DNA from: Prevotella sp.
GTDB taxonomy: Bacteria; Bacteroidota; Bacteroidia; Bacteroidales; Bacteroidaceae
Direction of reading: 5' to 3'
NCBI GenBank assembly: GCA_022771625.1
Contig: JALFCW010000057.1
Coordinates: forward strand, 7,119-71,118
DNA: 64,000 bases
Numbering within the stretch: the stretch's first letter is position 1; each line of letters starts with the position of its first letter. Position numbers and translations under genes: made by a program. Of the stretch, positions 43,382-45,004 are shown in pieces. The notes beneath the pieces were generated by a model. That model did no database searches. It had not been told where the DNA came from and worked only from the letters and a program-made list of their open reading frames with translations.

Positions 43382-45004
43382 ATGATAACAGTTACAAATC
43401 TTGCGATTCAATTCGGAAAGAAAGTCCTCTACAAGGACGTTAATCTCAAGTTTACAAGTGGAAATATCTATGGCGTAATCGGTGCCAACGGTGCCGGAAA
43501 GTCAACATTGCTCCGCGCCATCAGTGGCGACTTGGAGCCCAATAAGGGTACGGTGGAGATGGGACCTGGAGAGCGTCTGTCAGTGCTCGAACAGGACCAC
43601 TTTAAATATGACCAATACTCTGTCAGGGATACTGTGCTCATGGGACACCAGCCTCTCTGGCAAAACATGAAGGAGCGCGAAGCTCTCTATATGAAGGAGG
43701 ATTTCAATGAGGAAGACGGTATCAAGGTGGCAGAACTGGAGGATAAGTTTGCCCAAATGGACGGATGGAACGCCGAGAGCGATGCCGACCAGATGTTGTC
43801 GAACCTTGGAATTATGGACGACAAGCACGACAAGATGATGAGTGAACTGTCGAACAATGAGAAGGTGCGTGTGATGTTGGCAAAGGCTCTTTTCGGACAT
43901 CCCGACAACCTGCTGCTCGACGAGCCCACCAACGACCTTGACCTCGACACAGTGATGTGGCTTGAGGAATATCTTAGCAATGTAGAGCAGACAGTACTTG
44001 TGGTGAGTCACGACCGTCACTTCCTCGACGCAGTATCGACACAAACAGTGGATATCGACTTCGGAAAGGTGACCGTATTCTCAGGTAACTACTCCTTCTG
44101 GTATGAAAGTTCGCAGCTTGCATTGCGTCAGGCTCAAAACCAGCGTCAGAAGGCTGAGGAAAAGCGAAAGGAACTTGAGGAATTCATCCGCCGATTCTCT
44201 GCCAACGTTGCAAAGAGTAAGCAAACGACATCTCGCAAGAAGATGCTTGAAAAACTGAATGTAGAGGAAATCCGCCCGTCATCACGCAAATATCCCGGAA
44301 TCATCTTCCAGATGGAGCGCGAACCGGGAACACAGATTCTTGAGGTGGAAGGACTGAAAGCAGTGGAGCCCGACGGAACAGTGCTCTTCGACAATGTAAA
44401 CTTCACTATCGAGAAGGGACAGAAGACTGTATTCTTGAGCCATAACCCCAAGGCAATGACTGCCCTCTTTGAGATTATAAATGGCAACCGCAAGGCAGAT
44501 GCTGGTGAATACAAGTGGGGAGTGACTATCACAACAGCCTATCTCCCACTCGACAACACCGAGTTTTTCCAAAGCGACCTCAATCTCGTTGATTGGTTGA
44601 GCCAGTTTGGCAAGGGCAACGAGGTGCAGATGAAGAGTTTCCTCGGACGTATGCTCTTCAAGGATGAAGACGTGCAGAAGAAAGTGAACGTGCTCAGCGG
44701 TGGTGAGAAGATGAGATGTATGATTGCAAGAATGCAACTCAAGAATGCCAACTGCCTCATTCTCGACACTCCCACAAACCACCTCGACCTCGAGAGTATC
44801 CAGGCGTTCAACAACAATCTTATCCAGTTTAAGGGCAATATCCTATTCGCCAGCCACGACCATGAGTTTATCCAAACTGTGGCTGACCGTATCATCGAAC
44901 TTACTCCAAGCGGAACCATCGACAAACTGATGGAGTACGACCAGTACATTTACGATGAAAATATCAAGGAACAGAAGGCGAAAATGTATGGAATAGTAAA
45001 ATAG
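43382..45004 (+). CDS. ABC-F family ATPase (two fused NBDs, no TM domain) with a degenerate second ATP site
   Basis: 540 aa. NBD1 has Walker [10 protein letters not shown], Walker [12 protein letters not shown] and H-loop [11 protein letters not shown]-rich linker follows. NBD2 has signature LSGGEK and H-loop ASHDHEF, but its Walker A position reads SHNPKAMTA and its Walker B reads [11 protein letters not shown]. Confidence 0.85.

Follow-up and report, generated by a model that had tools for sequence, protein, structure and literature searches.

A YbiT/YkpA-type ABC-F protein of Prevotella with one consensus and one degenerate ATP site, a trait shared across its clade

The window studied here, a stretch of 64,000 nucleotides from a Prevotella sp. 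assembly (GCA_022771625.1, contig JALFCW010000057.1), encodes a 540-amino-acid YbiT/YkpA-type ABC-F protein (P0001) at 43382..45004 on the forward strand. This protein is probably a Bacteroidales orthologue of the YbiT/YkpA housekeeping ABC-F translation factor, with one working ATP site (site 1) and a second one (site 2) that is catalytically dead. It is a member of a known family, and the possession of one dead site is a family-wide, under-described trait.

The reading frame is open over its full length, and the identification of its product as an ABC-F ATPase, made in an earlier note from the letters of the DNA, was confirmed by Pfam domains, NCBIfam models and the match to YbiT. Two stretches of the protein match PF00005 (ABC_tran; E = 5.9e-42, Pfam), indicating two NBDs in one polypeptide. 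The inter-NBD linker, or PtIM (P-site tRNA interaction motif), occupies residues 223–304 (44048..44293, +), where PF12848 (ABC_tran_Xtn) was detected with an E-value of 2.1e-21 and a score of 76 bits (cut-off 25.9). The linker folds into two long helices in the AF2 model (H237–272 and H276–290), and residues 241–320 contain 18 Lys and Arg residues against 11 Asp and Glu residues. An arm subdomain of three helices (H90–103, H110–125 and H128–141 in the AF2 model), collinear with that of YbiT, lies inside NBD1 at residues 90–141 (43649..43804, +) and, judging from the ABC-F literature, may contact the ribosome. The model shows two RecA-like cores and has a mean pLDDT of 85, with values of 91–96 over residues 341–360. 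No hydrophobic or transmembrane segment was found anywhere in the protein (maximum 19-residue Kyte–Doolittle mean of 0.76), and no transporter or TMD gene is fused to the ORF or immediately flanks it. The 540-amino-acid protein is a soluble ABC-F protein.

Among solved structures, the closest relative is E. coli YbiT (PDB 9njf_Y), with which the protein is collinear over residues 2–528 against 2–529 (E = 7.5e-144, HMMER), and ribosome-bound YbiT chains were also the best Foldseek matches of the AF2 model (9njf_Y, TMq 0.77). The top NCBIfam model was the YbiT-type NF011646 (E = 2.7e-173 over residues 1–528). Its equivalog cut-off was missed (577.2 bits against 762), and the lost site 2 explains why YkpA-type proteins score below this cut-off. 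The ARE ABC-F proteins (Vga, Lsa, Msr, OptrA and VmlR) resemble the window protein in their NBD–PtIM–NBD architecture and are binders of the ribosomal E site. None of the NCBIfam ARE cut-offs was reached (NF000355, 331 against 380 bits; Vga, 244 against 725 bits; OptrA, 219 against 1450 bits; Msr, Lsa, Sal and CplR, all far below), and ARE proteins ranked below YbiT in the structure search with the AF2 model.

These matches also bear on the proposal that such a protein is not a ribosome factor and instead supplies the ATPase activity for multidrug efflux or resistance, as claimed for C. difficile CD2068. For CD2068, which is 67% identical to YkpA (PMC8144104), drug efflux and a drug-stimulated ATPase in membrane vesicles are described in the accessible text of PMC5577244. 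Such a role is very improbable for the window protein, given the missing transmembrane segment and flanking transporter gene, the conserved PtIM linker, the ARE scores under cut-off and the closest solved relatives, all of which are ribosome-bound ABC-F factors. Loss of YkpA itself, according to the accessible part of PMC11381351, gives translation phenotypes.

The motifs of the protein were located by script, and those of site 1 are all at consensus. NBD1 carries the canonical Walker A motif GANGAGKST (residues 34–42; 43481..43507), the Q-loop LEQDH (residues 69–73; 43586..43600), the Walker B motif LLLDEPT with the catalytic Glu181 (residues 177–183; 43910..43930) and the H-loop VSHDR (residues 208–212; 44003..44017), and NBD2 contributes the canonical signature LSGGEK (residues 438–443; 44693..44710), all on the forward strand. 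The earlier note had described both NBD1 Walker motifs and the NBD2 signature as canonical, and this holds.

The degenerate elements, namely the NBD2 Walker A, Q-loop and Walker B and the NBD1 signature, all fall in the other composite site, which is the asymmetry that had been proposed. The NBD1 signature position reads LSNNEK (residues 156–161; 43847..43864, +), as first reported; both Gly residues are replaced by Asn, and the motif aligns to VAPGWK of YbiT. At the NBD2 Walker A position stands SHNPKAMTA, which sits exactly on GTNGVGKST of YbiT in the HMMER alignment with 9njf_Y. The motif had been recognized correctly, and only its numbering, given as residues 352–360 (44435..44461), had to be shifted to residues 353–361 (44438..44464, +). 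All three Gly residues are gone, and Met359 takes the position of the Walker A Lys. In the AF2 model, the NBD2 helix starts three residues early, at residue 356, and the phosphate-binding loop is 3 residues long, against 5 in NBD1. The NBD2 Walker B motif LILDTPT (residues 459–465; 44756..44776, +) aligns on that of YbiT and keeps Asp462, with Thr463 in place of the catalytic Glu, as had been read from the sequence, and His492 is kept in the H-loop ASHDH (residues 490–494; 44849..44863, +). A regex search returned neither a canonical GxxGxGK[ST] nor D-E in NBD2, in agreement with the earlier note, which had seen none between residues 320 and 470. In addition to the substitutions listed there, the NBD2 Q-loop position YLPLDN (residues 387–392; 44540..44557, +) carries Leu390 for the Gln of YAQD in YbiT, and the NBD2 A-loop aromatic residue is probably lost, the alignment being less certain in that loop.

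The motif states were compared in 115 aligned relatives; 56 of these proteins come from 200 sampled Bacteroidota genomes and 58 from the best 80 among 602 genome hits. In this sample, which is neither random nor independent, the canonical NBD2 P-loop is missing in 89 of the 115. Each of the site-1 elements (Lys40, Gln71, Glu181, His210 and LSGGE) is kept in 89/89 of the non-canonical relatives. At site 2 of the same proteins, Gly358 is kept in 0/89, Lys359 in 17/89, Gln390 in 3/89, Glu463 in 62/89 and His492 in 72/89, and the second signature Gly of NBD1 is kept in 4/89. The residues replacing Glu463 are Gln (15), Thr (4), Ser (2), Asp (2), Gly (2), Lys (1) and Arg (1). Retention at site 2 is partial: the Walker A Ser/Thr position holds Ser or Thr in 83/89, and 87/89 retain the Walker B Asp; position 358 is Ala in 76/89, and the 17 members with Lys keep it in an xAK[ST]T context. 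By comparison, the 26 canonical relatives keep every NBD2 motif (26/26), including the Q-loop Gln. Site 2 is therefore not wholly free to drift, and a residual ligand-binding or other role is possible, at least in the basal Lys-keeping members. Mean pairwise identity is 0.56 for NBD2, against 0.62–0.68 for NBD1; NBD2 is thus conserved overall, which points to selection on the domain but not on its catalytic residues. A search of representatives returned the same two motif classes, and no counts were taken from it since many of the matches are fragments. In the four other ABC-F paralogues of this genome, both NBDs retain GK[ST] and DEPTN.

Because the exact protein is present on 994 contigs, and because the canonical NBD2 P-loop is likewise missing from 88 relatives in other genomes, chance or sequencing error can be excluded as the source of the degenerate motifs. 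Among the 120 matches listed in the homologue search there were only Prevotella proteins of 98–100% identity. The tree was built from 75 rows, a subset of the aligned relatives; it is unrooted and comes from a quick LG+G4 search. In it, the 49 non-canonical rows all group in a single clade (SH-aLRT 100, stem 0.4), which spans Bacillota, one Spirochaetia and Bacteroidota, and the window protein is nested with a support of 100 in a Bacteroidales group. It shows what characterizes the YkpA-type clade: it lies within the clade, its NBD2 has neither GxxGxGK[ST] nor the Q-loop Gln, and its site 1 is canonical. The suggestion of the earlier note that the degeneracy might mark a subfamily is borne out by this clade of 49 and by the 89 of 115 in the alignment.

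The same pattern speaks to whether the protein is a decaying, non-functional paralogue whose degenerate motifs mark the onset of pseudogenisation. An orthologue was found in 15 of 60 other family-level genomes of the order, so the protein is dispensable in many lineages, and YkpA was reportedly assumed not to be fully functional by Quentin et al. 1999, as related second-hand in PMC8144104. We nevertheless find decay barely credible, and the conservation pattern already contradicts it, with an open frame, the exact protein on so many contigs, 51–78% identity across phyla, an invariant site 1 and an NBD2 that is conserved overall. Deletion of ykpA in B. subtilis has a phenotype, according to the accessible part of PMC11381351.

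In the accessible part of Murina 2019 Table S2, a Bacteroides ovatus protein with FLSRNPRAMTAF and YLPLDN is filed as 'YbiT', and so is B. subtilis YkpA (NP_389326.1), with FTGRNELAVTTL and YFPKDN; Table S1 of the same work has a YbiT entry in every Prevotella species row among those listed. The window protein itself is absent from the Murina 2019 table, and its YbiT class is taken from the B. ovatus protein with the same motifs and from YkpA. Assignment to the Bacteroidota-specific BdAF1 subfamily of Murina 2019 was considered and rejected: the B. ovatus BdAF1 entries differ in sequence and carry canonical Walker A motifs, and the protein sharing the motifs of the window protein is the one filed as YbiT.

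YkpA is like the window protein in length class and architecture, in its dead NBD2 P-loop and in the loss of the Q-loop Gln (YFPKDN). Its placement in the same clade follows from its Table S2 motifs and from the Bacillota relatives (51–57% identity) within the clade, YkpA itself not being a row of the tree. Where YkpA retains the first Gly of the P-loop, the window protein has Ser. The two proteins also differ at the catalytic NBD2 Glu, which is absent in 16/16 Bacteroidales-order proteins examined (Thr, Ser or His in the window protein and 15 other order-level orthologues); YkpA presumably has this Glu in its second Walker B, since 'YkpA(EQ2)' mutants have been made. E. coli YbiT is collinear with the window protein over 527 residues at about 41% identity, and site 2 is weakened in both, the NBD1 signature VAPGW of YbiT being called 'strongly degenerate' in the accessible part of a preprint (bioRxiv 10.1101/2023.06.15.543498). 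In contrast to the window protein, YbiT keeps the canonical NBD2 Walker A GTNGVGKST, the Q-loop Gln and the catalytic Glu. The same sections of the preprint (bioRxiv 10.1101/2023.06.15.543498) report that ATP is still held in site 2 in the cryo-EM structures despite the degenerate signature, and they leave the competence of this site open. The view in the earlier note that characterised ABC-F factors, YbiT among them, generally possess two competent sites is not supported: in these sources, the signature of YbiT is degenerate, and the NBD2 P-loop and Q-loop of YkpA are dead. Full-text literature searches, together with passage searches in individual papers, turned up no description of a dead NBD2 P-loop in YkpA-type proteins; the 1999 study by Quentin et al. 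may note it.

In the classical exporters and channels with a degenerate site (CFTR, TM287/288, TmrAB and the Pdr5 type), the glycine-rich Walker A is intact and ATP is bound stably at the degenerate site. The window protein is like CFTR and TM287/288 in having coordinated substitutions in one composite site, at the catalytic Glu (Thr463) and in the opposite signature (LSNNEK), with the other site at consensus. It is unlike them in that the P-loop Gly residues and Lys, kept in those systems, are gone, and in that those systems are membrane transporters, whereas the window protein is soluble and resembles a ribosome factor. The analogy with asymmetric ABC exporters drawn in the earlier note is consequently a loose one: the degeneracy of one site is shared, but the intact, ATP-binding Walker A is not, the P-loop being destroyed here.

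By the same analogy, site 2 could be non-catalytic yet nucleotide-binding, with a regulatory or structural role in which ATP acts as glue or as an ATP/ADP sensor, as in CFTR or TM287/288. The frequent retention in the clade of the Walker B Asp, the Walker A Ser/Thr, His492 and Glu463, together with the Lys of the xAK[ST]T members and the ATP seen in site 2 of YbiT, would fit such a role. We consider it unlikely. The Gly before the Lys is gone in 89/89 members and the Lys in 72/89, and the window protein is without all three Gly residues and the Lys; 86/89 are without the Q-loop Gln, and the aromatic residue of the A-loop has probably gone as well. The phosphate-binding loop shortened from 5 to 3 residues in the ligand-free AF2 model and the intact Walker A of classical degenerate sites also argue against it. 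With neither the glycine-rich loop nor the lysine left, site 2 has most probably lost nucleotide binding.

The gene lies directly upstream of grpE–dnaJ in the window, as had been noted, and this adjacency is local. When the window GrpE and DnaJ and the upstream 680-amino-acid protein were searched by tblastn against 109 flanked loci of relatives, grpE–dnaJ was found downstream in two (L077 and L119), both from very close kin, and a conserved operon or functional link with grpE–dnaJ was accordingly rejected. Upstream of the ATG there is a candidate Bacteroides-type promoter at 43315..43348 (+), with TTTG at 43315–43318 and TAcCTTTG at 43341–43348, proposed from its likeness to the Bacteroides promoter consensus TTTG / TAnnTTTG. 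Metatranscriptomic contigs from four studies cover 29–30 of 30 gene bins and bridge the junction between the stop codon and grpE, weakly suggesting that the gene is present in RNA libraries, where DNA carry-over is possible. Co-transcription with grpE is not claimed, since contigs reveal neither where transcripts end nor how abundant they are, and DNA may have been carried over.

From its homology to the ribosome-bound YbiT structures, we infer that the protein would bind the ribosomal E site in an ATP-dependent manner, through its arm and PtIM linker, and would help the ribosome through hard-to-translate stretches. For YbiT and YkpA these are charged ones: YbiT alleviates stalling on poly-basic stretches and the destabilisation of ribosomes by poly-acidic ones (accessible text of PMC11162784), and loss of YkpA leads to stalling on charged motifs (accessible text of PMC11381351). 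Site 1, made up of the NBD1 Walker A, Q-loop, Walker B and H-loop and the LSGGE of NBD2, would be the working site, and site 2, made up of the NBD2 P-loop, Q-loop and catalytic base and the NBD1 signature, would be catalytically dead. Site 2 would then serve only as a protein–protein interface, closing once ATP is clamped in site 1, and one ATP would be used per cycle, its binding closing the protein on the ribosome and its hydrolysis releasing it. We lean towards extending this scheme to the entire YkpA-type branch (Bacillota, Bacteroidota and some Spirochaetota, including B. subtilis YkpA), as a natural single-ATP-site ABC-F in which site 2 would be a nucleotide-free, fixed protein latch and one ATP would be enough. 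The Bacteroidales, with no Gly, Lys, Gln or Glu left, would represent the end point of its decay.

The 'EQ2' double mutants with which ABC-F proteins are studied presuppose two working ATP sites, and the contribution of each site is still unsettled. YkpA, which has been studied genetically, belongs to a large branch of the YbiT subfamily that is frequent among gut Bacteroidota and Bacillota. This branch has abandoned site 2 with site 1 invariant, which indicates that one site suffices for the job of a YkpA-type factor. Biochemical and cryo-EM work could draw on the clade for natural single-site proteins. If the branch does work with a single ATP site, the 'EQ2' constructs of YkpA would in effect be EQ1, and the clade would be a natural experiment on why other ABC-F proteins keep two sites.

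The open reading frame at 43382–45004 on the forward strand is open throughout and encodes 540 residues (P0001, hereafter the window protein). In a scripted motif search, NBD1 carried a Walker A (residues 34–42), a Q-loop (LEQDH, 69–73), a Walker B (LLLDEPT, 177–183) and an H-loop (VSHDR, 208–212), which form site 1 together with the NBD2 signature LSGGEK (438–443). The converse composite, site 2, read LSNNEK at the NBD1 signature position (156–161), SHNPKAMTA at the NBD2 Walker A position (353–361), YLPLDN at the Q-loop position (387–392), LILDTPT at Walker B (459–465) and ASHDH at the H-loop (490–494). 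An E. coli YbiT chain (9njf_Y) aligned collinearly with the window protein (HMMER, 2–528 on 2–529, E 7.5e-144). Since SHNPKAMTA aligned onto YbiT GTNGVGKST, Met359 occupies the Walker A Lys position. Leu390 lies at the Q-loop Gln position, Thr463 at that of the catalytic Glu (a Gln in the crystallised construct, an EQ2 double catalytic-Glu mutant) and LSNNEK on VAPGWK. Asp462 and His492 of NBD2 were kept, and its A-loop aromatic is probably lost, the alignment being weak in that loop. The script and the alignment thus confirmed the degenerate site proposed in the earlier note, and the absence of a canonical P-loop from NBD2 held as well, as G..G.GK[ST] matched once, in NBD1 only. SHNPKAMTA had been read correctly and placed one residue too early (352–360), and the list of site-2 losses was right but incomplete, the Q-loop Gln being gone too.

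The window protein very probably belongs to the ABC-F/YbiT-type family. By Pfam it has ABC_tran in two stretches, with the ABC-F linker domain (ABC_tran_Xtn) covering 223–304. The top NCBIfam model was the YbiT-type equivalog NF011646 (577 bits over 1–528, below its 762-bit cut-off), and the antibiotic-resistance ABC-F models all scored far under their cut-offs. An AlphaFold2 model, made with an alignment of 63 sequences, had a mean pLDDT of 85, with residues 341–360 at 91–96, and its top Foldseek matches were ribosome-bound E. coli YbiT chains. TMq was 0.77 to 'non-hydrolytic' 9njf_Y versus 0.68 to 'hydrolytic' 9nlf_Y, a gap that weighs little because AlphaFold2 is blind to ligand. In the model, NBD2 retains its strand-loop-helix, with the helix beginning at residue 356, leaving a loop of three residues versus the five-residue P-loop of NBD1. 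Four further ABC-F genes in the same genome (contigs C134, C117, C131 and C1) encode GK[ST] and DEPTN in both NBDs. The Uup-like one on contig C1 (L148, 1195–2985) reads AKNGTGKS in NBD1, with Ala for the first Walker A Gly, and is otherwise canonical.

NBD2 degeneracy is no one-off. When 200 other Bacteroidota genomes were searched with the window protein, 52 contained an orthologue at E ≤ 1e-185 (51–68% identity), including 43 of the 46 same-class genomes, and four a form of about 39% identity; the other 144 gave paralogue-level matches or none, 14 lacking a match at E ≤ 1e-60. With all 56 proteins aligned to the window protein, GxxGxGK[ST] and the Q-loop Gln were missing from NBD2 in 52/52 orthologues, and the four distant forms were canonical. 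Among 60 other genomes of the order, one per family, the gene appears patchy, as only 15 have a match at E ≤ 1e-150. The catalytic Glu position of these 15 proteins and the window protein held Thr (9), Ser (5) or His (2). From named genome records we took the best 80 of 602 genome matches and tabulated 59, leaving out 19 other ABC-F paralogues (≤ 34% identity) and two fragments. Within these best 80, the dead NBD2 site occurred in Bacteroidales, Marinilabiliaceae, Flavobacteriales, Cytophagales, Chitinophagales and Sphingobacteriales, in Bacillota at 51–57% identity (Paenibacillus, Ureibacillus, Streptococcus mitis and many Clostridia) and in one Spirochaetia; proteobacterial, acidobacterial, myxococcal and fibrobacterial relatives (35–43% identity) had a canonical NBD2. 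One Bacteroidaceae MAG locus (L066, 3001–4608) matched residues 1–536 at 78% identity by tblastn, and its translation ends after 192 residues owing to a frameshift, stop or assembly error in the record. Two representatives of more than twice the normal length, P0193 (1308 residues) and P0224 (1281 residues), were matched by the query in seven stretches and may be tandem-fused double ABC-F proteins.

In a 75-row unrooted quick IQ-TREE tree (LG+G4), all 49 non-canonical rows formed a single clade (SH-aLRT 100, stem 0.4), answering the earlier question of whether the degeneracy marks a subfamily: it does. Bacteroidota YkpA-type proteins were nested in Bacillota diversity beside Paenibacillus and one Spirochaetia (SH-aLRT 98–99; L058–L064, L076, L082), and canonical YbiT from four other Bacteroidota genomes (families f36 and f16) grouped with Acidobacteriota and Myxococcota. 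An ancient between-phylum transfer is possible from this unrooted quick search. The sister of the window protein was an ABC-F 78% identical to it on a contig labelled Lachnospiraceae bacterium (L077, 3001–6573), with the Bacteroidales-type motifs FISHDPRAMTAL and LDTPTN and grpE-dnaJ downstream as in the window; this is probably a Prevotella-like contig mis-binned in a Bacillota bin.

We then compared the two sites across 115 relatives (the window protein, 58 named loci after truncated L066 was dropped, and the 56 phylum-sample proteins), 89 non-canonical and 26 canonical. At site 1, K40, Q71, E181, H210 and the NBD2 LSGGE were each present in 89/89 non-canonical proteins. At site 2, Gly358 was found in none (Ala in 76), Lys359 in 17, Gln390 in three and the second signature Gly of NBD1 in four of the 89; every NBD2 motif was present in 26/26 canonical relatives. 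Decay was graded across the clade, from G-x-N-x-x-A-K-[ST]-T with YFPKDN, frequent in Bacillota and non-Bacteroidia Bacteroidota, to S-x-x-x-x-A-x-T with YLPxDN in the window's class. NBD2 is still conserved overall, with mean pairwise identity in the clade of 0.56 versus 0.62–0.68 for the NBD1 parts. The picture suggested by these alignments is that site-2 function was lost at the clade base, the residues decaying further since, and that site 1 and the fold have remained strictly selected; a decaying gene is barely conceivable. The main evidence against full loss of site-2 function is what was kept: Asp462 in 87/89, the Walker A Ser/Thr (360) in 83/89, His492 in 72/89 and Glu463 in 62/89 (otherwise Q15, T4, S2, D2, G2, K1, R1). 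This retention is compatible with some remaining binding function, above all among basal members. It also favors a non-catalytic ATP-binding site, a reading of site 2 that we judge unlikely. Catalytic death of site 2 is very probable, and we lean towards a site that no longer binds nucleotide.

The ABC-F stop codon lies 49 nt upstream of the likely grpE ATG (45054), in agreement with the gene order noted earlier; of the 109 relatives' loci with flanks, only two had grpE-dnaJ after the ABC-F gene. A candidate promoter, a TTTG ... TAcCTTTG pair at 43315–43348 upstream of the ATG, resembles the Bacteroides promoter consensus. Metatranscriptomic contigs of four pig-gut studies span the gene and bridge into grpE, which shows presence in RNA libraries, not transcript structure. 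One such contig (run X2) terminates 10 nt short of the ATG, at 43372, in a loose end that resembles adapter sequence. Two lipoprotein-like upstream ORFs (363 and 680 residues, within 40112–43245) appear unrelated to the ABC-F gene.

This is a known family, with earlier work on its B. subtilis member. Table S2 of Murina et al. 2019 (PMC6723617) assigns to 'YbiT' both B. subtilis YkpA, with FTGRNELAVTTL and YFPKDN, and, from Bacteroides ovatus, a protein carrying FLSRNPRAMTAF and YLPLDN; their Table S1 gives YbiT in every Prevotella species row among those listed. YbiT eases stalling at poly-basic stretches and counters the destabilisation caused by poly-acidic ones (PMC11162784), and loss of YkpA leads to charged-motif stalling (PMC11381351). 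By homology, the window protein would bind at the ribosome's E site, and its inter-NBD linker (PtIM) would act on the peptidyl-transferase centre; one ATP clamped in site 1 would drive closure, its hydrolysis would drive release, and site 2 would be an interface without nucleotide. We consider this single-working-site explanation likely. An efflux-coupled ATPase, as claimed for C. difficile CD2068, is highly improbable, since no hydrophobic segment was found along the window protein.

In a cryo-EM preprint (bioRxiv 10.1101/2023.06.15.543498), site 2 of E. coli YbiT is already weakened by its signature VAPGW, its catalytic competence is left open, and closed 'non-hydrolytic' states are driven by the VAPGW-signature subdomain. 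In the YkpA-type clade this trend appears to have run to its end: YbiT is weakened through the signature, whereas here the P-loop and Q-loop are gone too. In our literature search we found no published statement of a dead second ATP site in the YkpA-type branch; one from 1999 may already mention that the motif is missing. In the passages searched, which include the paper on YkpA and the two on CD2068, the words 'Walker' and 'degenerate' do not occur or have only a generic sense, and a 2026 preprint still constructs YkpA(EQ2). The dead second site is thus a family-wide trait that has been under-described.
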